A stretch of DNA of 64,000 bases from Arenicellales bacterium (GCA_963422685.1 OY730442.1:2695847-2759846); one strand, 5' to 3'; shown: positions 34,732 to 51,209, counted from the first letter of the stretch. A program made the numbers and translations. Notes: generated by a model not told the origin, from the letters alone.

Positions 34732-37089
34732 CTAGGGCAGGGGGCCGTCTTTGAGAAACCCTTTGATGGTATTTTCGAGAATACGGGAGACGTTATTGTT
34801 GTAGTTGTTATGGGAAAGACTGCCGCACCAGGAAAGTGAACCGGGTGCGAACAGCGCACCGTCGTTCGGAGTTTTATAATAAATCATGTCAGCGCGAACC
34901 TGTGGGTTTTCAGTGCCGCCGCCATAATAACCGCGGACGGAGAAATGTATCTCCTCGTTCACTTGCAGCATGAGATTGGTGTGGCCTTCGGAACGCGCCA
35001 GCAAATAGGCATTGTGCGGCGTACCGAATTCCAGATCATAACGATCAAGTTCAAGGCCTGCGGCGCCGCCGCCGACCAGACCAAAGTCTCCGATTATTTC
35101 ATCTTCGCCGACACCTTCGAAAATCCAGGCGCATTCTGGTCTCTTGCTGTCCGCTTCACGGCGGTAATACGAGGACACATCAAAGCCGTAAGCGGTAAAC
35201 GTCAATCCGCATACCTTGCTTGGTATGCGCCCGCGTGCCCGCCACATTCCACCGAACTTTCCATCAAAGGCATTATTATATTCGCCTGGATTTGCCGTCC
35301 ATGCCCGAGTGCCTGCCTCACCTTTGCGCACTTCGATAATATTGTCATTGTCCGGGTGGTATTCGCTGACCCAGTAAAATCCGTCCGCACCCAGATATAT
35401 CCAGCGTCCGCCTCCGAGTTGATAGGACTCGTAGGCGGCATACATTTTTTCCGACGTGTATTCAGGATGGCTGCCGGTCAACACCGTTCTATACCGATTA
35501 AGCATTCCCACCCCTTCGCGATGCAGATCTTCATCGGTATGCACATCAAAATCGAAGCCTGTTTGTTCCAGCCAGTCGGTGAGATGCAAATCGCCGTTAA
35601 GCTGCCATAACGATGGCGACAGCCAGTGACGATACTTGGGTCGCATATTCAATATCGGGCGCAGGCGCGATGAGTAGCATACGCCACTGCCGTCTGAGTG
35701 CAGCGAGTAGGTAGACAAGCCGTATTCCCTATGTTCATTCAAATACAGGTCTGAAGGGGACAACACCGGGACTTTGCCCGCCAGCAATTGCGCGACCACC
35801 GAATTGGTGCCCAGGTTGTCGTTGGAATACGCCATGTAACTGTTGGTCGGTAAAATCAACGCCAGTCTGGATGTGGTCGTGCCTTGGGGCGGGCGAACAA
35901 CAAACGGAATAAAATCTTCGGTATCAGCAGAATCATCGCCGCCGATACGTAACCGGGCGGCATAAACCCCGCTTTTCAAACCTTCCGGCACGGTAAATTC
36001 AAAATCCATGTCCCAGCGAGCATCGTCGATATCGTCGTCATGGAAATGAATCGCGCCGTATTCATCGGGCCGGTGATGGTAGACAATCTCATCCCCGGTC
36101 CAGTTGAAACCGGTCATCGCTCTGGCCGGCAGGTTGATCGCATGACCATTGAGTATGTTCGGCGAGGTGTCGATAATATAAGTGGATGCGATGTTTGTAG
36201 TGATATTGGCGTGGAAATCCCACGCGCCGACAACATCATTCCGCAGCTCCGCCGCACAGCCCTCAAAGCCCCGTGCCAGCGCCTCAATCTCGGATTTGGA
36301 CAGCGCTCGACGGCAGAGTCTGGGGCGGTCGATTTTGCCGTTATAGACATGGGTTTGCTCCGGCAGCTCGACGGGCTGAGTCGCTTCCCTGTAATGTGCG
36401 CCGAAAATTGCTCTACCCGATCTTTCCTGCAAAGTTGAGGCGGCCATCAGCAAAGGCGCATCATTTATGCCGGGGAGCATACTGTTAGTTGCTTCCACCA
36501 CAGCAGTGGTTTCATCTCCGGGATGCAACAGCGACATACCCAGGCCGCCATTGGTAGCGGTGACCACGGGTTCCTGATACAACGTGACTCGACCACTTTG
36601 TTCATCAAAAGTCGCCGCTGCCAAATACCAGACTTTGCGCATCAGTTTCTTGTCGCTGGACAGGTTCATTACCAGTCCCCTACCGTCGCCAATCTCCAGG
36701 CTCAGGCAACCGCTATGGTCTATAAATAATCCATACCCGCATTTATTCTGCTCTGTCCATTTGGTGAGAATACCCTGCCTGCCCTTATCCGGTGTGGTTG
36801 GAAAAATGTAGGCTTGCAGGGTAAAACTCTGGACATTCAGGCGCTCGTCCTGAGGAATGATGATATAGGAACCGCCGTGAATTCTCTGGTTTCTGCCCGC
36901 ATAGGTTGTGTTGCAGGACGCGGTGATTTCCTCTTCCTTGTAGCCCGGTCCTTGCGGGTTGGTGTCGCCGTGGATTAAACGAACAATATGCGCATCATAG
37001 GATTCCTGCTCCTCGGAATTCACATAGAACTTGATGTTATCTCCAGGACAAACAGAATACTTGTCACTGTATCCGGTAATTCGTAACAT
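34732..37089 (-). CDS. N,N-dimethylformamidase large (beta) subunit family amidohydrolase
   Basis: Blocks match my recollection of DMFase: MLRITGY...VRLIHGDTNPQGPGYKEEE, DARWDMDFEFTVPEGLKSGVYAA, GLSTYSLHSDGSGVCYSSRLRPILNMRPKYR, VLTGSHPEY, GLVGGGAAGLELDRYDLEFGTP and NNVSRILENTIKGFLKD. The start was set at the ATG at 37089, because the ORF-track start overlaps the upstream SSS gene. Confidence 0.8.
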   Translation of the reverse strand: MLRITGYSDKYSVCPGDNIKFYVNSEEQESYDAHIVRLIHGDTNPQGPGYKEEEITASCNTTYAGRNQRIHGGSYIIIPQDERLNVQSFTLQAYIFPTTPDKGRQGILTKWTEQNKCGYGLFIDHSGCLSLEIGDGRGLVMNLSSDKKLMRKVWYLAAATFDEQSGRVTLYQEPVVTATNGGLGMSLLHPGDETTAVVEATNSMLPGINDAPLLMAASTLQERSGRAIFGAHYREATQPVELPEQTHVYNGKIDRPRLCRRALSKSEIEALARGFEGCAAELRNDVVGAWDFHANITTNIASTYIIDTSPNILNGHAINLPARAMTGFNWTGDEIVYHHRPDEYGAIHFHDDDIDDARWDMDFEFTVPEGLKSGVYAARLRIGGDDSADTEDFIPFVVRPPQGTTTSRLALILPTNSYMAYSNDNLGTNSVVAQLLAGKVPVLSPSDLYLNEHREYGLSTYSLHSDGSGVCYSSRLRPILNMRPKYRHWLSPSLWQLNGDLHLTDWLEQTGFDFDVHTDEDLHREGVGMLNRYRTVLTGSHPEYTSEKMYAAYESYQLGGGRWIYLGADGFYWVSEYHPDNDNIIEVRKGEAGTRAWTANPGEYNNAFDGKFGGMWRARGRIPSKVCGLTFTAYGFDVSSYYRREADSKRPECAWIFEGVGEDEIIGDFGLVGGGAAGLELDRYDLEFGTPHNAYLLARSEGHTNLMLQVNEEIHFSVRGYYGGGTENPQVRADMIYYKTPNDGALFAPGSLSWCGSLSHNNYNNNVSRILENTIKGFLKDGPLP

Positions 37090-37117
37090 GGTTTTTTCCC
37101 CGAATAATCGCCTTGAA

Positions 37118-39058
37118 TTAATATTTTGAGCCACTGGCAACTCTTTCGATTTCCCGTTCTGGAACAGTGGACATCTCCATTTTGCAGGCCAGATACCAAA
37201 TCATGCCTACGCCCAGCGCCCACCAGATAATCTGCCATGCCCAGATCGATGGCATACCCAGATTCCAGGCCGGATATCCTGCATCGGGCTCACCGAAAAG
37301 TACATTGCCAAGCACCGCACCGGGACCGATCGCAAAAAACATCCACACCAGTACGATGACTGCGGCGACGGATTTTGACCAGCGTCTGTGTCTCGTCAAT
37401 GAACCGTATTCTTTAAGAAAATCGTGCACCTGGCTGCGTCGCGGCCGGTGCACATCGTTGCGCCCCATAGCCGAAACGATGAGGCAGACCAGGATATTCA
37501 AAAACATACCCCATGCGGCAGAATGTATGGTCCAGGGCCAACGCCCCCAGGGCAGCGAATCCGCTGCGAGCTTCTGCCCCAGAGGTTCGGTCATGACCAC
37601 AGCAATCAGACCGGCAATCAAACCCAGGGTGGCAGCCTGTCGCGTGATCCAGGGAAACCATGTCACAGCAAGCAGCGACGGCCACAGTTGAAACCCAAAG
37701 GCAATGGCAAGACTGCCAAGCAGTATGGTAGCTTCCATTGAATAGGTGGCGATCAGCATGGCGGCCAGAAATACCAGCCCGGTACACAGCCGACCCACCC
37801 GCTTTTGTTTTTCATGATTCGCGTCAGGCTGGATATAGCGTTTATAAATATCCCGGGTCAAAATACTGCCAGTGGCGGCCATAAATGCACCGGCCGTTGC
37901 CTGTAACGCCGCAATGGCACAGACTGCAAACACCCCTATTAGCCAGGGCTGTTTGTCACCGATCAGTTTTATGTAGTGCACTGCCAGGGAGTTTCTTTCA
38001 TGGCCAGCCAGTACGGGTAGTATCTGCGCGGTGGCGATGTCGGCTTCATTGACTTGGGCATTGGCGCCCAGCAAATGTGCGCTAACACCCATCAAGGTGG
38101 AAAATACAAGCATGATGATCCCGGCGCAAAACGCGGCCCCCCAAACTTGATGGATGACGAATCCGCGTGGCGACTGGCTTGCAAAGCCCCACATGGAAAT
38201 AGCGGGCGAAGCCTGAATTCCCATTATCGACATCATAAAAGTCAGGCACATGATGGCTGTCCAGGGGCCGCCAGAAGGCGATTCGACACCGATTCCGGCG
38301 GTCCATTGAATTACCCCCGGGATGGCAAAGTATCCCGGGAAATTTCCACCGCCTGAACCATTCGTATTGCCCCACAAGCCCGGCAAGTTCTGTGCGATGC
38401 GTGCCAGACCTCTGTTCAGAGAGTCGAATCCCCCGGCCGTTTCCAGGGCAAATGTGCCGAGTACAACCACGCCAAAGGCAAACAATACGCACTGTACCAC
38501 AGCGATTTTCGCCACAGCCTGCATACCCCCAGTGGTACAGTACAGCAATACGAAGCCCGATAATACCCACATGGCAGCGTCACGGGATATGGTTTGATCG
38601 GTCAACTCACCGATCAAAAACCCGGATGCACCGAATAGCATGGCGGCAAATGGCACACCGAACAACAGCGCGATACCGACGGATACGATACGCAGCGCAT
38701 TGCCGCCAAAATAGTCTGCAAACATTTCGCCGCACGTCATATATCCAAATCGTCGCCCCAGCATCCACTGGCGTTTGAGGAGTACCACACCCGCTAACGC
38801 CACGGCTATGCCGTAAAAGGATGTATTAACGAATTGAAAGCCATCACGAAATACTAAACCGGGGTGCCCCATAAACGCCCAGCCTGCCAAGGTCACCGCA
38901 GTGATGGCAAGAGAAAATACCCAGGGCGAAAGCTGTCGGCCGGCAAGAAAAAAATCGCTGGCGGTGTGTGCCCGACGCAGCGCACGGATACCCCAGAAGA
39001 AACAATATGCCCAGTAAAGCAGCAAAAACAGCAGCAGCCAGATGGTGCTGTGGGTCAT
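37118..39058 (-). CDS. Sodium:solute symporter (SSS) family transporter
   Basis: 646 aa, about 13-14 hydrophobic segments, with an SSF-type N-terminus (LLLYWAYCFFWGIRALRRAHTASDFFLAGRQLSPW). It ends 28 nt before the amidase start. Confidence 0.8.
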   Translation of the reverse strand: MTHSTIWLLLFLLLYWAYCFFWGIRALRRAHTASDFFLAGRQLSPWVFSLAITAVTLAGWAFMGHPGLVFRDGFQFVNTSFYGIAVALAGVVLLKRQWMLGRRFGYMTCGEMFADYFGGNALRIVSVGIALLFGVPFAAMLFGASGFLIGELTDQTISRDAAMWVLSGFVLLYCTTGGMQAVAKIAVVQCVLFAFGVVVLGTFALETAGGFDSLNRGLARIAQNLPGLWGNTNGSGGGNFPGYFAIPGVIQWTAGIGVESPSGGPWTAIMCLTFMMSIMGIQASPAISMWGFASQSPRGFVIHQVWGAAFCAGIIMLVFSTLMGVSAHLLGANAQVNEADIATAQILPVLAGHERNSLAVHYIKLIGDKQPWLIGVFAVCAIAALQATAGAFMAATGSILTRDIYKRYIQPDANHEKQKRVGRLCTGLVFLAAMLIATYSMEATILLGSLAIAFGFQLWPSLLAVTWFPWITRQAATLGLIAGLIAVVMTEPLGQKLAADSLPWGRWPWTIHSAAWGMFLNILVCLIVSAMGRNDVHRPRRSQVHDFLKEYGSLTRHRRWSKSVAAVIVLVWMFFAIGPGAVLGNVLFGEPDAGYPAWNLGMPSIWAWQIIWWALGVGMIWYLACKMEMSTVPEREIERVASGSKY

Positions 39059-39121
39059 ACTGGACTCCCATTGATCGAGTTGGCCATGTGATCAATACGC
39101 TTTGTGCACCGCGACAGCCCG

Positions 39122-39883
39122 CTAGACAATTTGTTTTGGGGCCTGGGGGACCCGGGCCCAGAATTTCGGGTCATGCCCATAGAATATTCGCGCCCCGGCT
39201 TTTTCCAGCTTGCGCAGCAGCAACAGCGAATCAAGCATTTGGCTGCGATTATGAACCAGATGCGGCAGGTGCAGATTGGTCAGAGTTTCTTTTAAGTAAC
39301 AGGCATCAGCGGATAATATGATGTCACCAGAATCCAGGCGAACCTTCAGTGACTGGTGACCCGGAGTGTGGCCGAAGGTCGGTAGAGTGACTATGCGCCC
39401 ATCTCCGAACAAATCGTGTTCGCCGTTGACTTTCTGCACCAGATGACCATGATCATAATCCGCAGGAGCGTAGCCATTGGCTTTAATACATTCCGGGGTC
39501 TGCCCTGCTTCCCATTCGCGTTGTTGAATAATTATTTTGGCGTTTGGAATCAATTCATTACCGCCCGTATGATCAAAGTGCAGGTGTGAGTTAACCAGGT
39601 ATTCGATTTTATTCGCTTCGATATCCAGTTGTTGCAGACGTGACTTTATGTCCTCGCCCTGACGAAATTCAACACTAAAAAGATCCGCCAGAAATCCTAT
39701 CCTGCTGCGTGGATCATGCTGGCAGTGGGGATGCAGCCCGGTATCGAACAACACCTGACCGCGCGGGTGATCAACCAGATAAGCCGGCACCGGGAACCGA
39801 ATTCTGCCGGCTTTGCCGGCAAGCATCATGTTCAGCCCGGAGGTCAGCCAGCCGCAGGTCATGGCGTATACTTTTATGGACAC
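39122..39883 (-). CDS. Metallo-beta-lactamase fold hydrolase (AHL-lactonase-like subgroup)
   Basis: 253 aa with NSHLHFDHTGGN (HxHxDH), followed by the ...GHTPGH... and ...GHD... metal ligands. Confidence 0.75.
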   Translation of the reverse strand: MSIKVYAMTCGWLTSGLNMMLAGKAGRIRFPVPAYLVDHPRGQVLFDTGLHPHCQHDPRSRIGFLADLFSVEFRQGEDIKSRLQQLDIEANKIEYLVNSHLHFDHTGGNELIPNAKIIIQQREWEAGQTPECIKANGYAPADYDHGHLVQKVNGEHDLFGDGRIVTLPTFGHTPGHQSLKVRLDSGDIILSADACYLKETLTNLHLPHLVHNRSQMLDSLLLLRKLEKAGARIFYGHDPKFWARVPQAPKQIV

Positions 39884-39938
39884 GCAACGCCCTGATTCTT
39901 GCTGTTACTATCGGTCTGCAAACGCAGTAACACCGTGG

Positions 39939-40793
39939 TTATCCGTCGGTGCGTTCACGAATGATACGCAGCGCCTCTTTAAGATAGACCCGAAACACAT
40001 CGTAGTTTTCGCTCATCGGAAAATGGCCAATATCGTCCATCTCGATATAGACTCCGCCCCGTATCCGGCGTGCGGTATTTTCGGTGGCCTCAGGGGGAGT
40101 GAGGTAATCGTAGGTGCCGGTCATCATGATTACCGGGCATTTTCGACCCTGGATGTTTTGCAGTTCATCGCGCAGGTCGTGGTCAACGGAATAAAAGTAC
40201 AGATCTCCTTTGAACGCTTCTGACCCTTGGGTGTAATAGTGCCAGGTCAGCCAGCGATCCATTTCCGGCGATTGCGGTGCCATTAAATCCCACACACCGC
40301 TGCCACAAACCTGGGCCGCATTGGCGTGCGGATGGCGCCACCAATCCAGATAAAATCCTGGCGCATAGTCAGCCGCTTCTACCGGGATCACTGCCTTGAA
40401 TCGATCTGGCCGCCGCAGTGCAAGTTGTAATGCGACATTTCCGCCAAATGATGAGCCCATAAAAATCGGCTCCTTCAGCTCCAGCGCGTCACATAATCTG
40501 AGTATGAAATTACAATAGTGATCGGCGGTAAGTTTATATTCCTGTTTCCACCACTCGGTGTTATGGGGCGGGTCTGATTTTCCATGTCTGGGCAAGTCGT
40601 AGGCAATGACGTTGTAATGTTTTGTGATTTCTGCGTCTTCAAGCAGACCACGCCACTGGTGATTATGGCATCCGGCAGTGTGTTGACAGATGAGCGGCTG
40701 TCCCCGGCCATTATGTAGATAGAACACTTTGTACTCCTGACCATCAACATCAATTGTTACGTAGCGGCCGGTAACGGGGGAATGTTTTACCAT
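39939..40793 (-). CDS. Alpha/beta-fold hydrolase
   Basis: 284 aa with the nucleophile elbow MGSSFGG and a C-terminal ...DDIGHFP... histidine. Confidence 0.75.
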   Translation of the reverse strand: MVKHSPVTGRYVTIDVDGQEYKVFYLHNGRGQPLICQHTAGCHNHQWRGLLEDAEITKHYNVIAYDLPRHGKSDPPHNTEWWKQEYKLTADHYCNFILRLCDALELKEPIFMGSSFGGNVALQLALRRPDRFKAVIPVEAADYAPGFYLDWWRHPHANAAQVCGSGVWDLMAPQSPEMDRWLTWHYYTQGSEAFKGDLYFYSVDHDLRDELQNIQGRKCPVIMMTGTYDYLTPPEATENTARRIRGGVYIEMDDIGHFPMSENYDVFRVYLKEALRIIRERTDG

Positions 40794-40845
40794 TTTTTTG
40801 TTCCTGGAAACGCTGTTTCAGTAGGGTTGTCTGGCGAGGTCTGCA

Positions 40846-41235
40846 TCACACGGGAACGCCGCTTTTGCGCAATAGTTCAAATTGCACGGTAAAATTACGG
40901 AGATTCTGCATAAGTACCAGATGATTACCCTCAATCTTCAGGTCCTTGCGAAAACTTGCCGACCAGATACCGTGATACATTGGTTTCGGCACAGGTTGGG
41001 AAAACTCCCGCCAGGTTGCCGCTGAGGCCCGCAGTGCGAAATCATACGCATCCAGCGGCCCGGGGTCCGTGTTAATATTTTTTATCTTGCCGTCGTGCAT
41101 TTCTATAATGAACCTGCAATCGGTCATGTCAAACATAAACGAGCAGGTGTAGTACTTCGCCATTGCGCCGATGGTTTCATCGCTATTTGTCAGGTTTGCG
41201 TACTTATCTGCCCAGGTTTTAGGGTCTTGCTTCAT
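40846..41235 (-). CDS. SCP2 sterol-carrier-like small protein (tentative)
   Basis: 129 aa. The pattern ...FMFDMTDCRFIIEMHDGKI...ALRASAATWREF...LKIEGNHLVLMQNL resembles SCP2 domains. Assigned from pattern only. Confidence 0.4.
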   Translation of the reverse strand: MKQDPKTWADKYANLTNSDETIGAMAKYYTCSFMFDMTDCRFIIEMHDGKIKNINTDPGPLDAYDFALRASAATWREFSQPVPKPMYHGIWSASFRKDLKIEGNHLVLMQNLRNFTVQFELLRKSGVPV

Positions 41236-41353
41236 AATTCAATATTCTTCAATAACGTGACTGACCGCTGGCTTGTGTGCGATCTGGCACCATTGGCAAG
41301 CCCTGGCCATCCCGGGAACATGTGTCAGCCTGAAAATCATTATTAACTGTTGT

Positions 41354-43399
41354 TTAACTATTCTGCGGCTTCCCGGCGGACTTTGTCGTATTCGACCGGG
41401 TTGATGTACTCTGATCGGTGATTTCCTTGTCATAGCCACCCAGAATATTGCTGATGTTACTGATCTCTCCTGGTGACATGCCGATTTCCTGCAACAGATT
41501 ATCAACAAATGGCATTTGTGCACGGTAACGCAGCGCCGAGTTCACAACGTTATCTGCCAGACTGCTGCCCGGCGTATCATCGCCTTTTCTTGGTCTATCC
41601 CCGCTGCCGCCAGCGCCCTGGGGATGTCCATCGCTGAATCCGGGCATCCCGTTGACTTCCAGAATCTTGATAGCGTCAATGTTCTGCATTGGTTTCACCG
41701 CTTCCCGGATGATGGATTCAAGATTGCTCGCCAGTTGCATACGCAATGCACTGCGGCGACTGGCGTCGCTGCGCATATTCTCTGCCTCATTAAGCTGTCG
41801 CTTGCCAGCCGCCTCTACTTCATAACGCAGCCTGGTCGCCAACGAAGCAAACTTTTCGGCCTGCTCCCGGTCTGCGGACGCTGTTTTTTCGGCTTTGGCC
41901 AGCGTAGTCAGTTGAATCGCTTCGCGCTCCACCTGCTGGGCGGCATGAATCAGCTCGACGGCTTTTTTACGTTCTGCAATTTCCAGTTCACGCACTGAAG
42001 CAACTTTCTCCTCAGCGTCTGCGACTTGAGCGTGCGCCTGTTGTTCTTCGGTATTTGCCTGCAACACTTCCAGCGATTTTTTGGTAACCGCCAGATTGCG
42101 ATCCTGCTCTTCTATCTGCAATATCTTGAGTTTTTCGATTTCCTGGGCTTTGGTCTTTCGCTCATTTTCGATTCGAATCGCGTCAAGATTCCGCTGTTGC
42201 ACTATTTGCGCTTTTTTCACTTCTTCCCGGGCGCGGATCTGTGCTTGTTCGCCTTCCTGAAAACGCACTGCTTCCTGGGTCACCACATCCGCTTTCTGCT
42301 TTGCTCTGCGCACCGCAATTTCTTCCTGCTGCTGTAAGTGTACAAATTCATTTTCTTTTGCGATTTCGAGCGATCGGATGTCCGCTTCCAGGTTCTTCTG
42401 TTGAATCTGGATTTCGGTTTCTTTTTCGATCTGGTTGCGTAATCTGCGCCGTTCTTCGATTTCCAGGGTTAGTTTGTGATCGCGCAATGAACGTTCAACA
42501 TCAACAGCCTGTTCATAGCAGATGCGTGCTTTTTCAATTTCTTCATCGGCTTTTATCTGCGCTTCTTCGGCCTTGCGCTCCTGGTTGGCGCGCTCCACAG
42601 ACATTTCGGTGCGTTCTTTGGCGCGCTGTTTTTCTATATCTCTTTGTTGGGCAAGACGAGAAAATTCACTTTCTTTTTCAATGCCCAGCGCTCTTTTTTC
42701 TGCTTCCAGGTTTTTGTTGCGAATCTGAATCCGGGTGTCCTGTTCAATGTCGTTGCGTTTTTTCTTGCGCAGTTCAATTTGCTCGGTCAATTGGGTGAGA
42801 CCTTCTGCATCAAACGCATTGGATGGGTTGAATACTTCCAGGGCGGCCTGATCCAGGCCGGTCAGAGAAACCGCTTCAAGCTCAAGCCCGGTTTGACCTA
42901 ATGAATCTTCTACCAGCGCTTTGACCGACTTGACATAGTCGCCCCGATGTTCCTGCATTTCGTCCATGCTCATCTGCGCCGCAACAATCCCCAGGGCATC
43001 GACAAACCGGCCTTCCACCAATTCACGCAGGCTTTCCGGTTCCAGCGTACGTTTTCCAAGCGATCGCGCCGCTGTGGATACTGCTTCCCGGGTCGGCGTA
43101 ACGCGCACATAAAACTCCGCCACCAGTTCAACGCGCATTCGGTTTCTGGTGATCAGGGATTTGTCGCCGCCGCGCCGGACTTCAATGCGTAATGTGCGCA
43201 TGCCCACGGTGGTTATATTATGGATAATCGGCAATACGAAGGCGCCACCGCTAATTACAACCTTTTCACCACCGAGGCCACTGCGCACAAACGAGACTTC
43301 TTTGGAAGAGCGACGGTATAACCAGTGTAATAGATAAACTACGATAGCAATCGCAAGCCCAATCAGGATGATTACCGCAATAATGTCTGCACCGGTCAT
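41354..43399 (-). CDS. Flotillin / SPFH (band 7) family membrane-scaffold protein, YqiK-like
   Basis: N-terminal TM (IIAVIILIGLAIAIVVYLL), an SPFH domain (...VVISGGAFVLPIIHNITTVGMRTLRIEV...), and a long E/K/Q/R coiled coil with a tandem ~100-aa duplication. AGGAG RBS. Confidence 0.85.
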   Translation of the reverse strand: MTGADIIAVIILIGLAIAIVVYLLHWLYRRSSKEVSFVRSGLGGEKVVISGGAFVLPIIHNITTVGMRTLRIEVRRGGDKSLITRNRMRVELVAEFYVRVTPTREAVSTAARSLGKRTLEPESLRELVEGRFVDALGIVAAQMSMDEMQEHRGDYVKSVKALVEDSLGQTGLELEAVSLTGLDQAALEVFNPSNAFDAEGLTQLTEQIELRKKKRNDIEQDTRIQIRNKNLEAEKRALGIEKESEFSRLAQQRDIEKQRAKERTEMSVERANQERKAEEAQIKADEEIEKARICYEQAVDVERSLRDHKLTLEIEERRRLRNQIEKETEIQIQQKNLEADIRSLEIAKENEFVHLQQQEEIAVRRAKQKADVVTQEAVRFQEGEQAQIRAREEVKKAQIVQQRNLDAIRIENERKTKAQEIEKLKILQIEEQDRNLAVTKKSLEVLQANTEEQQAHAQVADAEEKVASVRELEIAERKKAVELIHAAQQVEREAIQLTTLAKAEKTASADREQAEKFASLATRLRYEVEAAGKRQLNEAENMRSDASRRSALRMQLASNLESIIREAVKPMQNIDAIKILEVNGMPGFSDGHPQGAGGSGDRPRKGDDTPGSSLADNVVNSALRYRAQMPFVDNLLQEIGMSPGEISNISNILGGYDKEITDQSTSTRSNTTKSAGKPQNS

Positions 43400-43460
43400 A
43401 ATTTCATGCTCCTAACTTGTTCTGTCGGCGACCATTTTTCACTGAAAATAAATAATAATG

Positions 43461-44159
43461 TCATGAATTCACTCGCGAATCGTTTATTGCAGCCCGATAG
43501 ATCACGAAACCGAAGATAATTTTGTTCAAAAAATCCGCGAGGTTGTAGATGATATTCAAACTATTGGTATCCACACCACCGCCCAGGTGTTCGATAAAAT
43601 AGCCGAGCGGATAAATTGCCCAGCCGATGGTGACAATCAGCCGTAAGCCGTTAAACGCCAGATGGGTGGCGTCGTTTCCGCTGTGCGCATTAACCCGGCC
43701 AGCTTCGCCCATATACAACTCACCCAGAATATACAGCCAGCCAACCAGCCCAATCAGAAAACCAAGGGTGGCGCTCATATAACCCGCCGCGCCGAGAAAT
43801 TCGCCAATGACCATCACCAGTGAACCTATCAGCAGTCGCCAGAATAACGCTGTGGAAGCCCTGGTTACCGCAGTGAGCACCACATAAAACAGAACCACCT
43901 GCATTGGATGGGTAAGCACCCAGTCAATGTATCGCAAAATTATCGGGGCGGAACCTGTGTCCATCCACATCTCTTTGGTGTAGTGATAATGGATCGCGGA
44001 GACCAGCATGACTACACCCAGCAGTGTCATTGTTGTATGCCATCTACCGGTCACCTTATTTCTTTCCAACAGGAAAAAAATGGTCGCGCCGATCAGGGCT
44101 ATGGACAACAGCCAGAATGAACCGCCGACAACATCAGTGGGTAACAGCGTCTCGTTCAT
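43461..44159 (-). CDS. Microbial (type I) rhodopsin, proteorhodopsin-like, with Leu at the proton-donor position
   Basis: 232 aa, colinear with proteorhodopsin as I recall it: SFWLL..., IHYHY (His75 equivalent), RYIDWVLTHPMQVVLFY (Asp97 and Thr101 equivalents present, Gln at tuning site 105, Leu at 108), and IYNLADFLNKIIFG (Asp227 and retinal Lys231 equivalents). Confidence 0.88.
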   Translation of the reverse strand: MNETLLPTDVVGGSFWLLSIALIGATIFFLLERNKVTGRWHTTMTLLGVVMLVSAIHYHYTKEMWMDTGSAPIILRYIDWVLTHPMQVVLFYVVLTAVTRASTALFWRLLIGSLVMVIGEFLGAAGYMSATLGFLIGLVGWLYILGELYMGEAGRVNAHSGNDATHLAFNGLRLIVTIGWAIYPLGYFIEHLGGGVDTNSLNIIYNLADFLNKIIFGFVIYRAAINDSRVNS

Positions 44160-44305
44160 GAAATATCAAATGTCTTGTTTTATTTTTATAACTGATTTCA
44201 TCGGGATAGCCGGTGGATAAACGATTGATCCCTTTCCGCCGGGGCGGAATTTGCCAGATCTGCAATCAGGTTAATGCCACCCGCATCTGGCTTAATGACT
44301 GGCAA

Positions 44306-44346
44306 TATATATCATTAGTTATAGATCCTGGTCAATAGTCTATATT
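44306..44346 (-). promoter_or_regulatory. Putative sigma70-type promoter with a palindromic box (box 2) upstream of the rhodopsin-led block
   Basis: The minus strand reads AATATAGACTATTGACCAGG-15 nt-TATATA. This is identical at 18 of 20 positions to box 1, with the same spacing, and sits about 145 nt upstream of the rhodopsin ATG. Confidence 0.5.
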
Positions 44347-44377
44347 CTTAATACAAGCATATCCTAAAGTTATAATT

Positions 44378-45421
44378 CTAGGGCTGTTCGCTCATCGTCA
44401 GAATCAGTTGCTGGCGAAAATTGTCAGCAATAATTGCCACAATCAAAAGCATGCCGATGGCCACCATTTGCAGATAAGAGTTGATACGCAGAAGATTCAT
44501 GCCGTTTTGGACCAGGATGATGAATACTGCTCCCAGCACGACGTTTGAAAGACGCCCCACACCGCCGAACAGACTCACCCCGCCGATGGCACATGCGGCG
44601 ATGGAAAGCAGAGGATAATTTGCGCCGATATTGGATTCCCCGCTTTCGAGCCGCGCGGTCAGCAGCAAGGCCGCGATGCCGGTAATCACTGAAGAAATAA
44701 TGTAGGCGCCAAGCAGATAGAAGCGCGTATTGATTCCAGAAAGGCCGGCGGCCCGTATGTTGCCGCCGATGGCGTATAAATATCGCCCCATGGGTGTCCA
44801 GTTAATGAATATATACATCACAGCGATGCACAGTACGGTAATCCATACCGGCACGGCTATGCCGCCTATTTGACCGTAACCAAATACATTGGCGAATGAT
44901 TCCGGTACGCCATAGATCGGTGTTCCTCCGGTAATCGTCAGCGACAACCCAAATACGATGGACGACATGGCCAGCGTCATCACAAATGGTGGAACACGGA
45001 AAATTGCAACGCCGATGCCATTGATTGTACCGATACCTACACTGGCGCCAAGCCCGGCCAGACAACCAATAAACACGGATTCCCAGCCGGTGCCATAGCC
45101 GGACCACAGCGACACCATGGTCATTGATGATACGACAGATGTCATGGCCAGCATGACGCCAACCGAAAGATCCAGACCTGCTGTGAGCATGACCACCATC
45201 TGCGCCATCGCCACCAGAACCAGATAGGTGGACTGCCGGGAAATCCCGAACAGATTTCTCTCCGTCAGGAAATTTTCGTTAGTGAGTCCAAATCCGATTA
45301 CGGCGAGACCCAGAAACCAGGGCAACACTCCACCTTTTATAAATAATATGGATGCGGTTCGTTTTATTTTTACTACCGCACGTATTGATTTTTTATTCAT
45401 TAATGCACGCCTTTTGTTCAA
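44378..45421 (-). CDS. CUT2-type ABC permease (RbsC-like), ordinary size
   Basis: 347 aa of BPD_transp_2 (...LTAGLDLSVGVMLAM..., ...IGGVSLFGGVGRLSNVVLGA...). It has a 4-nt overlap with the upstream ATPase gene. Confidence 0.88.
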   Translation of the reverse strand: MNKRRALMNKKSIRAVVKIKRTASILFIKGGVLPWFLGLAVIGFGLTNENFLTERNLFGISRQSTYLVLVAMAQMVVMLTAGLDLSVGVMLAMTSVVSSMTMVSLWSGYGTGWESVFIGCLAGLGASVGIGTINGIGVAIFRVPPFVMTLAMSSIVFGLSLTITGGTPIYGVPESFANVFGYGQIGGIAVPVWITVLCIAVMYIFINWTPMGRYLYAIGGNIRAAGLSGINTRFYLLGAYIISSVITGIAALLLTARLESGESNIGANYPLLSIAACAIGGVSLFGGVGRLSNVVLGAVFIILVQNGMNLLRINSYLQMVAIGMLLIVAIIADNFRQQLILTMSEQP

Positions 45422-47034
45422 AAAAAATAATTCAGCAATGCCTGCTCTGTAAGGTTGTCCCGGGCCAGTTCAGTACACAGTTCACCACGGTGCATGACGT
45501 AGGCGCGGTGGGTTAAATTCACGATTTCCGACAAGTCGGATGAGATCAGCAAGACCCCGGCGCCGGCTTCGCACACATCCCGAATAAGGCGATATATCGA
45601 TGCCCGGGTACCGACATCAACCCCGACCGTGGGTTCATCGAGAATAAATAGCTTGACGTCTCGCACTAGACTCTTTGCCACCAGTACTTTTTGTTGATTG
45701 CCGCCCGAAAGATGTTCAAGCGATCTTTCAATACCAATCGGGTTCAGGCCCAATCGTCGCGCAACCTCGCCCACAATATCTCTCTCACTCCGCCGGTTTA
45801 ACAGCAGGCCGCTGGAAAATTTCGGCAATCCGAGCGAAGGCAGCGAAACATTTTCCCGAACGTTTTGTATCATTACCAGGCCTTCAACCCGTCTGTCGGA
45901 AGGTAGATACAACATCCCGCGATCCAGCATCGCACGGGGACTGAGATCGTTGATGCGCCGCGCACTGTCATAAACCGGATCATCCAGATACGCAATACGC
46001 CCGGTTCGTATTTTGTGCAGCCCAAAACACGCCCGACCAATTTCCGACTTTCCCGAACCTACGAGACCAGCAATACCAACCACCTCACCTGCGTGCACGT
46101 TAATCGACACATCACGGGCAACCTGATTGCTCAGGTTCAGCCATTTTATATCTAACAACAATCTGCCGGACTGCGTATTAATTTCTGGAAATATCTGTTC
46201 AATGCGGCGGCCGACGGTTAATTCCACCAGCTTTTCTTCGCTGGTGTCCGCAACGGACACCGTTGCAACCTGCCTACCATCACGCAAAATCGTAATTCGG
46301 TCGCTGATGCGGTAAATCTCATTGGTGCGATGGGTTATGTAGATGACGCCAATGCCTTCGTCCTTTAGCACTTCAATCATCGCATACAGACGATTCGCTT
46401 CATGCGCGGTCAATGAAGCAGTGGGCTCATCCAGAATCATGATAGATGGTTTGGTGCGAAAAGCCTTGGCAATCTCGACCATCTGCTGCTCTGCCCGGGA
46501 AAGGTGCATGACCTTTCTCTCGGGTATCAGCGCAAATCCCAGGCTGTTCAGTGTCTCACAGGCTCGCCGATGCAAACTGGCCTTGTCGAGAAACGGCCCG
46601 ACCAGTTGTTCGGAACCCAAAAATAAATTTTCCTCAACGGTGAGCTGGGGAATTAACGAAAACTCTTGAAATACTGCACTGATACCCAGCTCACGAGCGT
46701 GTTGAACCGAGCCAATTATCACTTCTTCGTCGTTCAGGAAAACCGTCCCTGAAGTCGGCCGAATAACTCCGGCAATAATTTGGATGAGTGTCGATTTGCC
46801 CGCGCCGTTTTCTCCAAACAAAGCATGCACCTCACCCGAACACACATCGAAATTCACGCGATCCAGCGCCAGAGTGTCGGGGAAATATTTGGAAATATTT
46901 TCAAGTCGCAGCAACGGTCTGGTGCGGGCTTTGTTCGGCTTCGATACCAAACCCTCCTGGTGGCGGATTTTCACACTTTGCTGCCTCTTGTCGGTTTGCG
47001 GGTGCTGTATAGTTGTTGATGCCAGCGCATTCAA
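45418..47034 (-). CDS. CUT2-type ABC ATPase (two canonical NBDs), no tail
   Basis: GENGAGKST / LSRAEQQMVEIAKAF / MILDEPTASL, and GLVGSGKSE / LSGGNQQKV / FILDEPTVGVD. It ends ...LLNYFF. Confidence 0.9.
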   Translation of the reverse strand: MNALASTTIQHPQTDKRQQSVKIRHQEGLVSKPNKARTRPLLRLENISKYFPDTLALDRVNFDVCSGEVHALFGENGAGKSTLIQIIAGVIRPTSGTVFLNDEEVIIGSVQHARELGISAVFQEFSLIPQLTVEENLFLGSEQLVGPFLDKASLHRRACETLNSLGFALIPERKVMHLSRAEQQMVEIAKAFRTKPSIMILDEPTASLTAHEANRLYAMIEVLKDEGIGVIYITHRTNEIYRISDRITILRDGRQVATVSVADTSEEKLVELTVGRRIEQIFPEINTQSGRLLLDIKWLNLSNQVARDVSINVHAGEVVGIAGLVGSGKSEIGRACFGLHKIRTGRIAYLDDPVYDSARRINDLSPRAMLDRGMLYLPSDRRVEGLVMIQNVRENVSLPSLGLPKFSSGLLLNRRSERDIVGEVARRLGLNPIGIERSLEHLSGGNQQKVLVAKSLVRDVKLFILDEPTVGVDVGTRASIYRLIRDVCEAGAGVLLISSDLSEIVNLTHRAYVMHRGELCTELARDNLTEQALLNYFF

Positions 47035-48264
47035 TCAGTCCACGGAAAATTTCGGTATCCACCCCGTCGGCGCCAGGGTTGTGGCGGTATTGAATTCTGC
47101 AACCGTCTCCGGCGTCACAATAATAAACGGAGGCTGGACGTGCTCAATCAAACGGCCGGTATGGTTAAATTCCGGCCGACCACCAGTGGCCATACCTTTA
47201 TTTTCCAGCAGCCTCACGGCCTGATCAATCGCGACCCGCGCCTGGGTGATCATTTGATCGGATGGCGCCATTGCAACGGCACCACGCTTCAGGAATATGT
47301 GCATACCCGGGGTGTAATAATACGCCACCAATTTGATTTGCTTTTCCAGATTGCGCTCCCTGATTGCGCCAACAGCACCTTCAATGGTGGTCGCCGTGCC
47401 AACGATAAAGTCGAGTTCGACATTTTCCCCGGAGGTCATCGTTTGCAAAATATTTTCGACTAATTCCAACTGTATGGCTTTACCGGTATCGCCCCACCTG
47501 GTCTCCAGTATCTCCACATCTGTACCCTCTACTGCTGCGTGGCAGCCCTTGTCGCCGGCAACCGACCAACCAGCGCCGGGCGGCCCGGGAAACCATACAA
47601 CCTTGACCCTGCCGGTTCTGGTTTGAGGCTGATCGACGACCCACTTGCATGAAACGTAGCCCATGCTATAGAAGCTCTGCAACGAATTGGCGTCCACCGC
47701 CGTGTTGATTCCCGTAATAATAACCACTACCGGAACGCCTTTTGCGCGAATCACATCGATTTGTTTGGCATTGCCGTCGCTGGAAATGGGCGCAATAACC
47801 AACGCTTCTGCGCCGTTGGCGATGCAGTCTTCAACCTGGTTTAGCTGCCTTTCCAGATTGGTATAACCGCCTGCCTCGACCAGTGTTATTTTTTGCCCGA
47901 GGCGTTTTCCTTCGGAAATAATGCCATAGGCAACACCGGCAAAGTAGGAGTCTTTCATGTGGGGGAAAGACACGCATATATGGTGTTTTTCTGCTACTTC
48001 GGCCAGCATCAACGGCACATAATCCACCAGGTCCAGCTTCGCTAACTGGTTTCGTGGATCTGTCCAACAGGTCACATCCCCATCCGTGCACGCAGGATTG
48101 TATACATGAATCCTGGTCGGCCACCACTGCGCATCCTGCGCCGATGCGGACAAAGTCAACATCATTCCTGCCAACAATATACCAGCCGGCATCGTTGTCA
48201 GAATCAATGGTAACTTTTTCACACTCTTGCTCTCCCGATATACATTTGATTTTATACTGAACAA
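47035..48264 (-). CDS. Periplasmic binding protein, PBP1 (sugar/TorT-like) family
   Basis: Signal peptide ...KKLPLILTTMPAGILLAGMMLTLSASAQD and a Peripla_BP-like body. The true start may be the GTG at 48222, preceded by GGGAG. Confidence 0.75.
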   Translation of the reverse strand: MFSIKSNVYRESKSVKKLPLILTTMPAGILLAGMMLTLSASAQDAQWWPTRIHVYNPACTDGDVTCWTDPRNQLAKLDLVDYVPLMLAEVAEKHHICVSFPHMKDSYFAGVAYGIISEGKRLGQKITLVEAGGYTNLERQLNQVEDCIANGAEALVIAPISSDGNAKQIDVIRAKGVPVVVIITGINTAVDANSLQSFYSMGYVSCKWVVDQPQTRTGRVKVVWFPGPPGAGWSVAGDKGCHAAVEGTDVEILETRWGDTGKAIQLELVENILQTMTSGENVELDFIVGTATTIEGAVGAIRERNLEKQIKLVAYYYTPGMHIFLKRGAVAMAPSDQMITQARVAIDQAVRLLENKGMATGGRPEFNHTGRLIEHVQPPFIIVTPETVAEFNTATTLAPTGWIPKFSVD

Positions 48265-48427
48265 CTCTCATTGCCGTATAGATTGGTTTGTCGGGTTTGC
48301 GAACGGATACACAGAGTCGGTAAACTATGCGGTGTCCGCCCGAGACATAATAACGGCATACAGGAATCAGTATCAGGCTATTGTCTGCACATAAATTCTT
48401 CTTCAACGCAATGATACTTTTAAAAAC

Positions 48428-49120
48428 ATGACAGGCACGGCTGGCGAAAAGGCAAAGGAACAATCCGGTTTACGAATTGTGATTGCCGATGATCACGCAT
48501 TGGTGCGGGGCGGGTTGGCATTATTGATCGATATGGCCTCCCCTGGCGCGGAAGTTTTGCACGCCAACAGCCTCGGGCAGGTAACCGATATTCTTTCGCA
48601 AAAAGGCGCAATTAACCTTTTGCTGCTGGATCTCATGATGCCGGGCATGGAGGGGGAGGCGGGTTTAAAAACCATTTGCAGCTCCTGGCCGGATGTGCCC
48701 GTGATCATTGTCTCGGTCAAAGAAGACATCCACTCCATTCGACAATGCCTCGCAGCCGGCGCGATGGGCTATCTCCCCAAGACCTCCAGATCCAATATTA
48801 TAGTCAGCGCCATTCGATTGGTACTGGAGGGCGGCATATACATTCCGCCGCATGTTTTGCAACTGGACAAAAGTCAATCAGATCATAATCTGAACCCCCC
48901 GGGGTCGGTGTCGGAAAACGCTTTGACCCGTCGGCAGCTACAGGTGCTTGAGCTTATCGAATCCGGCAAATCCAACAAAGCAATTGCCGGCGAGTTAGGG
49001 TTGTCCACGGGCACTGTGAAAATGCACGTTTCCGGGATTTTCAAAAAACTGAACATAGCAAGTCGTACCGAAGCAGTGGCCGTTTACTCCAGGTTAAAGA
49101 AAAGTATCGGGCAACCGTGA
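48428..49120 (+). CDS. Response regulator, NarL/FixJ (LuxR HTH) family
   Basis: REC domain (RIVIADDH...LLLLDLMMPGM...) plus a C-terminal LuxR HTH (LTRRQLQVLELIESGKSNKAIAGELGLSTGTVKMHVSGIFKKL). Confidence 0.88.
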   Translation: MTGTAGEKAKEQSGLRIVIADDHALVRGGLALLIDMASPGAEVLHANSLGQVTDILSQKGAINLLLLDLMMPGMEGEAGLKTICSSWPDVPVIIVSVKEDIHSIRQCLAAGAMGYLPKTSRSNIIVSAIRLVLEGGIYIPPHVLQLDKSQSDHNLNPPGSVSENALTRRQLQVLELIESGKSNKAIAGELGLSTGTVKMHVSGIFKKLNIASRTEAVAVYSRLKKSIGQP

Positions 49121-49142
49121 ATCTGGTCCTGTCTTGTGATGT

Positions 49143-51209
49143 TTATGACATGCCTGTGGAGTCGGCCTGAGAGCCGGGCCCGGGGGCTGTCATATGAGAA
49201 ATCAGTGCGCGCAGTCTGGCGGGTTGCACTGGTTTACACATCACCTGATAGCCCTGATTAGCGATGTCTCTTATGTGGCTTTCCTGTACATCTCCGGTAA
49301 CAATCACAGTGGGAATCGCATGTCCAATCATCAGTTGAACCCGACTGGCGACCTCAACTCCCTGGGTTCCGCCGGGTAATCGATTATCGGCAACAATGAT
49401 GTCAGGTGGTTTTGTACTTTGCTCTCCAACAATATCAATCACTTCATCCATGTTTCGACCTGTGACCACATGGCAGCCCCAGGATTCCAGGAGCTGCCGG
49501 GTCGCTTTCAAAACCTCCATATCATCTTCTATGAGCAGAACCCGTCTGCCCGATAAGCCATGAATCAGGTTTTCCAGGATGCCGGTTTCCGCCGCCTGAC
49601 CAGGCAGATTTTTACCGCCTGCAACCAATACGGCGAATCGCGACCCACTTCCAACCATAGAATCGCACTCGATTTCATGCGATAAGCACGCGGCCAGGCG
49701 TTTGGCGATGGCCAGCCCTAGCCCCAGACCCTTGCTTCGGTCTCGCTCCTCGTTATGGATTTGATGAAAATCTTCGAAAATGGCCAGGGTCTGGTCATCA
49801 GGGATTCCCCAGCCAGTATCCCAGACTTCAATTGAAATACTGCTGCCTCGCCGACGCACGCCAATCAATATCCGCCCTTGCCGGGTATAGCGTATGGCGT
49901 TTGACATGAAGTTGCCGAGAATTCGTTCCAGTAAAACCGGATCACTGCGTACCGATGCACTCGAAGGTATCAGTCGAAAATCCAGTTTCTTTTGTTTCGC
50001 GGCGGGTGCAAATTCCCGAAAAACCCGGCCCAGCAATTCCATAACGGGGAAGTCTTTATAACTGGGCTCTATCGCCCCGGCTTCGAGTTGCGAGACATCC
50101 AGCAGCGCACTCAGCAGTCGCGCCGTAGAGATGGAAACTGCATCGATGTCATCGACAATCGCCAGCGACTCTTGATCCACGGTTTTCTGGCGCAGCGCTG
50201 TTATGTACATCTGCATGGCATGCAGTGGCTGGCGCAGGTCGTGGCTGGCGGCTGCCAGAAACATGGATTTGGCCCGGTTCGCCTGCTCGGCTTCTTCTTT
50301 CGCGTCACGAAGGTCCTGGCCCTGGCGCCATAAATCGTGCTTTAACCGGTTGAAACTGCGGCCCATGCGCCCCAGTTCGTCCCGCCGCGCCATAAGCCCT
50401 TTTTCAAATTCAGATTCTTCGACCTGGAACATCGCGGTGAAAGCATTGATGGTGTCGGTGAGTAATTGCAAAGGCCTGGAGATGTTTTTTCTGATAATCA
50501 GCAGCAGCATCGCAATAAAAAAAATAACCGCGGCTAACAAGGTTAAAATGATAAAACCAGTCGCAATTCGCTTAACATAGACCGCATGTCTGATTGACTC
50601 TTGCCGTATTATTTCGAGCCGGGCGGTTAAATCTGCGAGTTTGTCCATCAATGTCATTTCGCTGCTTCGAATGTGCTCCAGAATTTCCAGTTCCATTGAA
50701 AATGAACGATCTTCAATTTGTTGCAGCAGATTGCGTACCAGCCGGTCATAAATTTGCGTCGCACGCCGCAGGCTAAAAAGCGCCTGCAATAGATCTTCGC
50801 TGTTCAAGGACAAGATATTTTCGTTCGCATCCTGCTGCACCACTGATTTTCGAATGAACTTTTCCGTGGACTCAATGCTTTTCTGTATTTCCTTCCCGCT
50901 ATCCAGATAACCCGAGCGCACACCGGGATTGATCGTGTCAATATGGTTGCCGTCGGCCGTTTGCGTAGCGCCAATGATAATTTCTTTGGTACTCAGGCGC
51001 TGATTCAATATCTGTGACCGGATATTTTCGATGGACAGGTGCAACGGCAAGGTAACTTCTGCGATCCGATCGACCTGGTCGCCAACATGGCGCAATTGTG
51101 AAATGGCAACAAGCGCCACGAAGCAAAACCCAACCACTTCAATCACAATCAAAGTAAATACTTTCTGATCCAGAGAAAATCGATTGAACGTTTTCTTTAT
51201 GCCCTGCAC
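49143..51209 (-). CDS. Hybrid sensor histidine kinase (TM-sensor-TM, HisKA, HATPase_c, REC)
   Basis: H-box FLAAASHDLRQPL, the N and G boxes (...GNFMSNAIRYT..., ...DTGWGIP..., ...GLGLGLAI...), and a C-terminal receiver (VLLIEDD...IIVADNRLPG). Confidence 0.88.
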   Translation of the reverse strand: MQGIKKTFNRFSLDQKVFTLIVIEVVGFCFVALVAISQLRHVGDQVDRIAEVTLPLHLSIENIRSQILNQRLSTKEIIIGATQTADGNHIDTINPGVRSGYLDSGKEIQKSIESTEKFIRKSVVQQDANENILSLNSEDLLQALFSLRRATQIYDRLVRNLLQQIEDRSFSMELEILEHIRSSEMTLMDKLADLTARLEIIRQESIRHAVYVKRIATGFIILTLLAAVIFFIAMLLLIIRKNISRPLQLLTDTINAFTAMFQVEESEFEKGLMARRDELGRMGRSFNRLKHDLWRQGQDLRDAKEEAEQANRAKSMFLAAASHDLRQPLHAMQMYITALRQKTVDQESLAIVDDIDAVSISTARLLSALLDVSQLEAGAIEPSYKDFPVMELLGRVFREFAPAAKQKKLDFRLIPSSASVRSDPVLLERILGNFMSNAIRYTRQGRILIGVRRRGSSISIEVWDTGWGIPDDQTLAIFEDFHQIHNEERDRSKGLGLGLAIAKRLAACLSHEIECDSMVGSGSRFAVLVAGGKNLPGQAAETGILENLIHGLSGRRVLLIEDDMEVLKATRQLLESWGCHVVTGRNMDEVIDIVGEQSTKPPDIIVADNRLPGGTQGVEVASRVQLMIGHAIPTVIVTGDVQESHIRDIANQGYQVMCKPVQPARLRALISHMTAPGPGSQADSTGMS

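Follow-up and report, generated by a model that had tools for sequence, protein, structure and literature searches.

Flotillin-associated rhodopsins (FArhodopsins, FARs) were defined as a clade by Haro-Moreno et al. (2023, mSystems, PMC10308929), with DTT, DTL or DNI motifs, an N-terminal deletion, genetic linkage to flotillin and an AlphaFold-predicted loss of the retinal pocket as its traits, and with DTL as the motif type reported for the FARs of Pseudothioglobus. In that study an ALOHA FAR of the DTT type neither bound retinal nor transported ions, and the authors noted that FARs may use another chromophore or need a native lipid context. The surrounding gene clusters comprise transporters, a gene for an N,N-dimethylformamidase-like (DMFase-like) protein and hydrolases, to which the Pseudothioglobus type adds a LuxR regulator and a hybrid kinase (PMC10308929).

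The FAR of Pseudothioglobus (PsFAR) has since been solved at 2.5 Å (Kovalev et al. 2025, bioRxiv 10.1101/2025.04.29.651185). Supplied with retinal, PsFAR was colourless: K213, although present, makes hydrogen bonds to S54, D79 and D209 instead of a Schiff base, while H84 fills the polyene site of the pocket and E120 fills the site of the ionone ring. Retinal was regained only by the double mutant H84V/E120G, which absorbed at 498 nm, did not pump, and went through a slow, almost bistable photocycle; since only the double mutant regains retinal, either H84 or E120 alone suffices to block binding. The structure revealed cavities that are fragmented and filled with water, as well as flexibility of E120; the 2.5 Å map came with no report of ligand density, and the protein assembles into the same kind of pentamer as proteorhodopsin without an obvious adaptation for flotillin interaction, the assays having been performed in E. 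coli and detergent without its flotillin (bioRxiv 10.1101/2025.04.29.651185). The FAR papers also mention other retinal-free opsins, namely Rh-noK of Betaproteobacteria and lysine-less haloarchaeal opsins. By their description there, these resemble the protein examined here in having a rhodopsin fold without chromophore, but they lack the Schiff-base lysine, whereas our protein keeps the lysine and loses the pocket.

The window analyzed here, a 64-kb stretch of an Arenicellales genome, encodes one rhodopsin as an ORF of 232 aa including the start Met, the longest in its frame (Table 1). A preliminary description of this DNA, made from its sequence, had called the gene proteorhodopsin-like, and a Pfam match to Bac_rhodopsin (E = 2.1e-34) bears this out. 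The best sequence match in the PDB was PsFAR itself, deposited as 'flotillin-associated rhodopsin' (9r21; E = 6e-126, ungapped over residues 1-229, 80.8% identity, 44 substitutions), followed by Med12 blue proteorhodopsin (E = 4e-67), and phmmer scored 422 bits to 9r21 versus 230 bits to the best proteorhodopsin. An AF2 model built with 50 homologues (pLDDT 89.7, pTM 0.85) contained seven transmembrane helices, and its top structural match in the PDB was again 9r21 (TM 0.97, rmsd 1.1 Å), while the paralogous pump PsPR (9r22) reached a TM of 0.92.

Aligned by HMMER, the window protein and solved proteorhodopsins matched without gaps over helix C, and because D79 stands opposite the mutant Asn of 4kly, a D97N mutant of blue proteorhodopsin, the numbering offset from the window protein to proteorhodopsin is +18. 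The hand alignment in the preliminary description was thereby reproduced, and the codon coordinates it gave for D79, L90 and K213 proved exact, as did its reading of Leu at the proton-donor position (L90 opposite E108, a D-T-L motif), Gln at the spectral tuning site (Q87, equivalent to Q105) and an unusual His directly after the Thr (H84, opposite V102). Compared with the blue-absorbing proteorhodopsins Med12 BPR (4jq6) and HOT75 BPR (4kly) and with PsPR, all of which it matches in fold (TM 0.77-0.92) at 45-52% identity, the protein keeps the equivalents of R94 (R76, also located in the ORF), D97, T101, H75, Q105, D227 and K231, but has Leu for Glu108, His for V102, Glu for G138 and Ser for Ala54; ten further clade-specific positions differ, and proteorhodopsin genes have no flotillin neighbor. 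Sensory rhodopsins and donor-less pumps likewise have no carboxylate at the position of BR-D96 and PR-E108, but they bind retinal in an open pocket, and the window protein falls phylogenetically inside the proteorhodopsin family rather than within those clades.

The start codon is the first after a stop, with only two codons in between, which leaves no room for a signal peptide, as the preliminary description had noted. A missing signal peptide was rejected as a FAR-specific trait, because some genuine proteorhodopsins lack one as well, Med12 BPR (4jq6) being one example and the proteorhodopsin of the Arenicellales locus L041 another.

Table 1. Features of the FArhodopsin gene and its surroundings (positions counted from the first nucleotide of the window)
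Feature	Position	Strand	Basis or remark
uvrA, cluster border	51222..54101	-	domain matches
NahK/ErcS-like hybrid histidine kinase	49143..51209	-	domain matches
LuxR/ErdR-like response regulator	48428..49120	+	domain matches
Periplasmic binding protein	47035..48264	-	domain matches
ABC ATPase	45418..47034	-	domain matches
ABC permease	44378..45421	-	domain matches
Promoter/operator-like block GACTATTGACCAGGATCTATAACTAATGATATATAT	44305..44340	-	36 nt, within the 218-nt spacer upstream of the FAR gene
FArhodopsin gene, 7-TM opsin of the proteorhodopsin family	43461..44159	-	ORF, Pfam, 9r21 match, AF2 model
Codons S54 to H57	43989..44000	-	S54, FAR signature; H57, proteorhodopsin-type His75
Codon H57 (proteorhodopsin H75)	43989..43991	-	
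Codon D79 (proteorhodopsin D97 counter-ion)	43923..43925	-	invariant
Codon T83 (proteorhodopsin T101)	43911..43913	-	
Codon H84 (proteorhodopsin V102)	43908..43910	-	fills the polyene-chain site in PsFAR
Codon Q87 (proteorhodopsin Q105)	43899..43901	-	
Codon L90 (proteorhodopsin E108, proton-donor position)	43890..43892	-	third letter of D-T-L
Codon E120 (proteorhodopsin G138)	43800..43802	-	occupies the site of the beta-ionone ring in PsFAR
Codon D209 (proteorhodopsin D227)	43533..43535	-	
Codon K213 (proteorhodopsin K231, retinal lysine)	43521..43523	-	kept
Spacer from FAR stop to flotillin start	43400..43460	-	61 nt; TAGGAG Shine-Dalgarno-like motif before ATG
Flotillin gene, 681 aa	41354..43399	-	Pfam Flot 2.2e-30, Band_7 1.1e-11
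129-aa protein, no assignment	40846..41235	-	ORF
Alpha/beta hydrolase	39939..40793	-	Pfam/NCBIfam
MBL-fold AttM-like lactonase	39122..39883	-	Pfam/NCBIfam
Sodium:solute symporter (SSF)	37118..39058	-	Pfam/NCBIfam
N,N-dimethylformamidase-like (DMFase-like) protein	34732..37140	-	Pfam
Two small proteins, no assignment	34324..34692, 33877..34284	-	ORFs

The likeness to PsFAR extends from the protein to its surroundings. Both proteins belong to the same length class and begin at the same point of helix A, aligned from residue 1, and they are identical at S54, R76, D79, T83, H84, Q87, M116, E120, G137, Y183, P184, D209 and K213; in both cases flotillin lies directly downstream, and the cluster combines a LuxR regulator and a hybrid kinase with an ABC transporter and a DMFase-like gene. 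Residues named as part of the pocket or of the lysine environment are untouched by the 44 substitutions. Non-binding of retinal is extrapolated from a homologue whose differences include F57H and Y59H, both in helix B at the PsFAR pentamer interface, as well as S85P and M90L. S85P adjoins H84, the window protein having Pro85 as proteorhodopsins do, as opposed to Ser85 in PsFAR. The genomic settings differ as well: the host has 51% GC, on a contig of 2.9 Mb, versus about 35% GC for the Thioglobus loci from streamlined plankton, and those loci are without the alpha/beta hydrolase, lactonase-like and SSF symporter genes of the window cluster.

To place these residues in the wider family, one genome per GTDB species was scanned, yielding 80 loci from each of which the rhodopsin and its neighbors were extracted. 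Every flotillin-adjacent rhodopsin (40/40) had L, M, T, V, A or S in place of Glu90, and 39 of the 40 carried a residue other than Val at position 84, whereas all 41 rhodopsins without flotillin showed A54/H57/V84/E90/G120, the canonical proteorhodopsin (D-T-E) pattern. Residues were then compared across 86 sequences, comprising 42 flotillin-adjacent ones (the 40 loci, the window and PsFAR) and 44 proteorhodopsins. Position 84 was occupied among the FARs by F (22), H (14), R (4), I (1) or V (1), as against V in all 44 proteorhodopsins; position 120 was Glu or Gln in 41/42 FARs and Gly in 44/44 proteorhodopsins; position 54 was Ser in 39/42 and Ala in 44/44, respectively; and Glu90, present in every one of the 44 proteorhodopsins, occurred in no FAR. 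K213 was invariant throughout (86/86), and within the FARs examined D79, D209, R76, W80 and Y183 were invariant too. His57 was rejected as a distinguishing novelty of the window protein, being the majority FAR state (31/42, SAR11 included), with Phe57 of PsFAR representing the minority.

Eleven positions (27, 46, 49, 90, 117, 120, 124, 149, 190, 215 and 221) separated FARs from proteorhodopsins completely; at all eleven the window protein has a FAR-only residue, and at nine of them the majority FAR residue. A neighbor-joining tree of 67 distinct sequences recovered the FAR/proteorhodopsin bipartition in 200 of 200 bootstraps and placed the window protein with PsFAR on the FAR side. The aligned donor position is Leu, in agreement with the preliminary description. 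The protein thus combines a position in the separate clade with a downstream flotillin, a DTL motif, S54, a short N-terminus and the cluster context, and the occluded pocket typical of the family, defined by a bulky residue at 84 plus Glu or Gln at 120, or by Trp137, is present at the sequence level as H84 and E120. The D-T-E donor and the small residues at V102 and G138 that mark pumping proteorhodopsins are absent. Judged on these grounds, the protein is a member of the FArhodopsin clade.

Directly downstream lies a flotillin gene that had gone unmentioned in the preliminary description. Its product starts with a hydrophobic helix, which is followed by an SPFH/Band 7 domain, a long and charged region resembling a coiled coil, and a Flot domain. 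Each of the 40 FAR-type loci has an orthologue in the same place, immediately after the rhodopsin. A PDB sequence search returned nothing for flotillin or for the 129-aa ORF. In NCBIfam, neither the rhodopsin nor flotillin is covered by a model, and the same goes for the DMFase-like protein and the three small ORFs. A consensus scan detected no terminator-like site between the two genes (43400..43460), and this short, terminator-free spacer suggests that FAR and flotillin are probably co-transcribed.

The same consensus scan, applied to promoters and terminators across 40700..44500, yielded no informative site, its counts being those expected by chance. Alignment of the spacer upstream of FAR, by contrast in method, brought out a 36-nt block in which TTGACC, resembling a -35 hexamer, is followed about 18 nt later by TATATA; it is present as a single copy in the window and matched in 0 of 100 shuffles. 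The block recurs upstream of FAR in loci L002 (where it has a 1-nt indel), L003 and L004, whose spacers otherwise do not align with that of the window. We regard it as a plausible, putative promoter or operator for the FAR-flotillin transcript.

Beyond flotillin, a same-strand run of genes extends over 33877..41235, and the upstream part of the cluster spans 44378..51209; together with FAR, about 17 kb has the content of published FAR clusters. Gene order across the cluster is identical in three metagenome-assembled genomes (MAGs) of Ca. Poriferihabitaceae (L002-L004), and syntenic parts of the cluster occur in loci of Thioglobus, Njordibacter, Rhizobiaceae, Hyphomicrobiales, Acetobacteraceae and Pelagibacterales, and thus in both Alpha- and Gammaproteobacteria. 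The uvrA gene at the border is not adjacent in related loci.

The gene has been kept with little change in its protein. Between the window FAR and orthologues with 71-77% DNA identity dN/dS was about 0.03-0.04 with dS saturated, and identity to the Poriferihabitaceae orthologues reached 90-92% for protein but only about 72-77% for DNA. Because dN/dS is this low, the gene must be maintained under strong purifying selection, and a pseudogene reading was rejected on the same value.

Taking these lines together, we consider it quite probable that the gene encodes a FArhodopsin with no retinal, no pumping and no light sensing, whose product is a partner or cargo of a flotillin scaffold. That the protein most likely neither binds retinal nor works as a proton pump or photosensor is argued from homology, since its pocket and lysine-environment residues are identical to those of PsFAR; a role in a flotillin microdomain is suggested by the constant linkage to flotillin and transporters. 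Under this model, the protein is a proteorhodopsin paralogue that retains the 7-TM fold, K213, D79, D209 and R76 and, with L90, is without a cytoplasmic proton donor; its pocket would be filled by its own side chains, with H84 in the polyene site and E120 in the ionone-ring site. FAR would be transcribed from its own promoter with flotillin, and probably also with the downstream transporter and hydrolase genes, and the product, as a pentamer in the membrane, would be a partner or cargo for the flotillin scaffold and help in organizing or regulating a membrane microdomain that holds the transporters of the cluster. Both the pentamer and the scaffold or microdomain role are what we infer from these relationships.

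An alternative to which we assign a low probability is a role as 7-TM receptor, or binder, for a non-retinal ligand — a small molecule, a lipid or a carotenoid derivative — accommodated in the remaining water-filled cavities. The protein would then report to, or gate, the cluster's genes for transport and catabolism, with a signal perhaps passing through the NahK/ErcS-like kinase and the ErdR-like regulator. Published FAR papers have raised this possibility, and several features agree with it: in the buried polar network K213, D79 and D209 are invariant and S54 nearly so (39/42 FARs), PsFAR combines fragmented, water-filled cavities with a flexible E120, a hybrid histidine kinase and a LuxR-type regulator belong to the cluster, and a conserved operator-like block precedes FAR. 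However, the 2.5 Å PsFAR map has no reported ligand density, and many FAR clusters, among them those of Pelagibacterales and of L005 and L006, are without the kinase and regulator, whereas flotillin is always present. A known transducer is also wanting: no ORF in the window contains an MCP, HAMP or ASRT transducer domain, and the immediate neighbors of the rhodopsin are the ABC permease and flotillin.

Equally improbable in our estimation is the hypothesis of Haro-Moreno et al. that FARs form mixed oligomers with a proteorhodopsin encoded elsewhere in the genome, tuning or stabilizing the pump within flotillin microdomains. This would accord with SAG data in which FARs always occur alongside a D-T-E proteorhodopsin (PMC10308929), and with the similarity of FAR and proteorhodopsin pentamers.

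Residues at the protomer interface can be read in the same direction. H75 and W34 of proteorhodopsin make a cross-protomer contact, and with the +18 offset they correspond to H57 and to the invariant W16, both of which this subtype retains. Yet a tblastn search found no second rhodopsin, and hence no proteorhodopsin, within the 64-kb window, the closest relatives of the host are sponge-associated and light harvesting is not evident in them, and no hetero-oligomer has been observed. When a protein search was started from an Arenicellales proteorhodopsin, planktonic proteorhodopsins saturated its best 120 matches, none of which lay on the host contig.

The preliminary description had posed the choice between a donor-less pump and a photosensor, which amounts to saying that the protein binds retinal and works either as a pump with a slow photocycle or as a blue-light sensor tuned by Gln87. 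We consider this very unlikely. In its favor, K213, D79, D209, R76, T83 and Q87 are all present under strong purifying selection, the subtype keeps the proteorhodopsin-type H57 and P85, and opening the PsFAR pocket yields a 498-nm pigment with a slow photocycle, the other machinery being intact. Against it, both functions need retinal, and H84 and E120 are both present, which in PsFAR, an 81%-identical homologue, block the pocket and each alone prevent binding; even the PsFAR double mutant that binds retinal does not pump. Nor does a sensory transducer gene of known type adjoin the rhodopsin, and, as the preliminary description had also observed, no carotenoid or retinal biosynthesis domain (blh, crt) is found among window ORFs of at least 200 aa in the 64 kb. 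The expectation that loss of the donor brings slow kinetics and an absence of pumping holds for the engineered PsFAR H84V/E120G, and for that protein only. The question of pump or sensor already has a published structural answer, which is probably neither.

There is next to no probability that the gene is a decaying proteorhodopsin relic without a function of its own: the donor carboxylate and the pocket have indeed been lost, but a dN/dS of 0.03-0.04 at saturated synonymous sites effectively refutes it, the ORF is intact in every locus examined, protein identity stands at 90-92% versus about 72-77% for DNA, and linkage to flotillin has been kept across two proteobacterial classes.

The distribution of the cassette points beyond vertical descent. 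The nearest FAR clusters belong to Ca. Poriferihabitaceae (Arenicellales, Gammaproteobacteria), which have genomes of about 3 Mb and are known from sponge metagenomes (PMC12859430), and a host of some 3 Mb and 51% GC with sponge-associated kin differs from the streamlined plankton stressed in the 2023 FAR work. The affinity of the host to this family is tentative: it is read from the nearest FAR clusters and their shared gene order, and DNA identity to the Poriferihabitaceae MAGs is only 71-75%. FARs from alphaproteobacterial MAGs (L005 and L006; Rhizobiaceae and Hyphomicrobiales) are 86-88% identical to the window FAR, whereas those of gammaproteobacterial Thioglobus reach 80-83%. Because the alphaproteobacterial proteins are the closer ones, the comparison implies horizontal transfer of the FAR cassette between proteobacterial classes. 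Among catalogued plasmids there was no FAR, the best match being a proteorhodopsin-like protein at 42% identity, and none was found on catalogued phages.

A broader reading, which we put forward tentatively and judge to be unlikely, is that FAR and flotillin form a horizontally mobile, light-independent module for membrane organization rather than an adaptation of light-exposed, streamlined plankton. It would fit the sponge-related host of about 3 Mb and 51% GC, the alphaproteobacterial FARs at 86-88% identity, and the constant linkage to DMFase-like and transporter genes. If it is true, a flotillin microdomain for uptake and catabolism of a small nitrogen or carbon compound would have the opsin pentamer as its core or gate, and the H57/P85 subtype would keep a proteorhodopsin-like protomer interface.

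The FAR family has already been described, and what is new here is modest, residing in the host setting and the residue variants; the interest lies in the family itself and in what a retinal-free rhodopsin may do beside flotillin. To this the locus adds a cassette outside streamlined plankton, in kin of sponge symbionts, which crosses classes with very high protein conservation, and a variant that keeps the proteorhodopsin-like His57 and Pro85. It could guide the choice of constructs for studies of FAR-flotillin complexes, and it permits asking whether the FAR system needs light or a proteorhodopsin partner. One further observation sits uneasily with a purely structural role: conservation at the chromophore site in FARs exceeds what such a role would obviously need.

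The most constant companions of the flotillin-associated rhodopsin (FAR) are flotillin and a trio consisting of an N,N-dimethylformamidase (DMFase)-like gene and two small ORFs of 122 and 135 aa. Among the first 20 related loci, all those with enough DNA have the complete trio 3′ of FAR-flotillin, and the arrangement spans both proteobacterial classes. Neither the 122-aa nor the 135-aa ORF matched any family in Pfam or NCBIfam. Many FAR clusters share a further short ORF, of 129 aa, with strong conservation (E ~1e-65 to 1e-82), and searches with it against Pfam, NCBIfam and PDB returned zero matches. A 'sterol-carrier-like' gene has been mentioned for SAR11 FAR clusters, of which the 129-aa ORF might be the counterpart; an SCP2 domain was sought in the ORF and none was detected.

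On its other side, the FAR cluster adjoins an ABC transporter and hydantoinase/oxoprolinase block, whose two permeases are of unusual length (754 and 469 aa). Four related loci (L005, L006, L007 and L012) carry this block immediately upstream of FAR, and it is therefore probably part of a mobile FAR cassette.

Features in and around the FAR cluster and towards the window ends (window positions unless a locus is named)
Feature	Position	Strand	Remarks
Short ORF, integrase core (rve) domain	2523..2984	+	
Short ORF, IS110-family transposase C-terminal domain	5106..5411	-	
ABC transporter and hydantoinase/oxoprolinase A and B genes	22244..33786	+	
Small ORF, 135 aa	33877..34284	-	
Small ORF, 122 aa	34324..34692	-	
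N,N-dimethylformamidase-like gene	34732..37140	-	
129-aa ORF	40846..41235	-	directly 3′ of flotillin gene
Conserved promoter/operator-like block	44305..44340	-	5′ of FAR; also L003 9766-9799, L004 9927-9960
tRNA-Ser (GGA)	57544..57634	+	
Type I restriction enzyme R subunit (1098 aa) and 556-aa ORF	58986..63996	-	after tRNA-Ser

Within the two-component pair at 48428..51209, the hybrid kinase resembles the NahK/ErcS type (370 bits, slightly below the 400-bit cut-off) and the regulator shows ErdR-type likeness. The MBL-fold gene at 39122..39883 resembles AttM-type acyl-homoserine lactonases, at 173 bits and likewise below cut-off. The conserved block upstream of FAR contains palindromic GGTATATAT..CC-type half sites in L003 and L004, both Ca. 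Poriferihabitaceae loci, and may serve as a binding site for the LuxR/ErdR-like regulator of the FAR cluster.

Comparison across loci revealed variation at positions 84 and 120, the residues that block the retinal pocket in PsFAR. A flotillin-adjacent rhodopsin in a Kiloniellaceae MAG (L038, OFTM138; JAJFGJ010000036.1, ~9992-10684) carries V84 and A120, and thus neither blocking residue, with K213, S54, N57 and S90 present. The protein may be a FAR with retinal binding still intact, and a possible natural equivalent of the H84V/E120G mutant engineered in PsFAR. The FAR of a Gammaproteobacteria MAG (L013) pairs I84 with Q120, and R84 occurs in FARs of Lichenihabitans, Acetobacteraceae, Aestuariivirga and Rhodobacterales (L016, L017, L031 and L032), a charged plug not discussed by Haro-Moreno et al. 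(2023) or Kovalev et al. (2025).

Towards the window ends, the two short ORFs with rve and IS110-family domains look like insertion-sequence remnants. The stretch with tRNA-Ser (GGA), the type I restriction enzyme gene and the 556-aa ORF, which had zero family matches, shows a fall in GC to 43% at 62-64 kb and is possibly a tRNA-associated island.

Sequence searches also returned a 376-aa rhodopsin-family protein (P0064), encoded on a 2434-bp ENA contig and ~140 aa longer than normal. It scored very highly with the FAR and proteorhodopsin queries alike; possible origins are gene fusion, tandem duplication and chimeric assembly. As of 2023, FAR was known from no cultured organism or complete genome. 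The FAR-flotillin cluster is present in L012, the complete-chromosome record of Candidatus Njordibacter sp. Uisw_039 (NZ_CP159831.1), and its FAR is 72% identical to that of the window.
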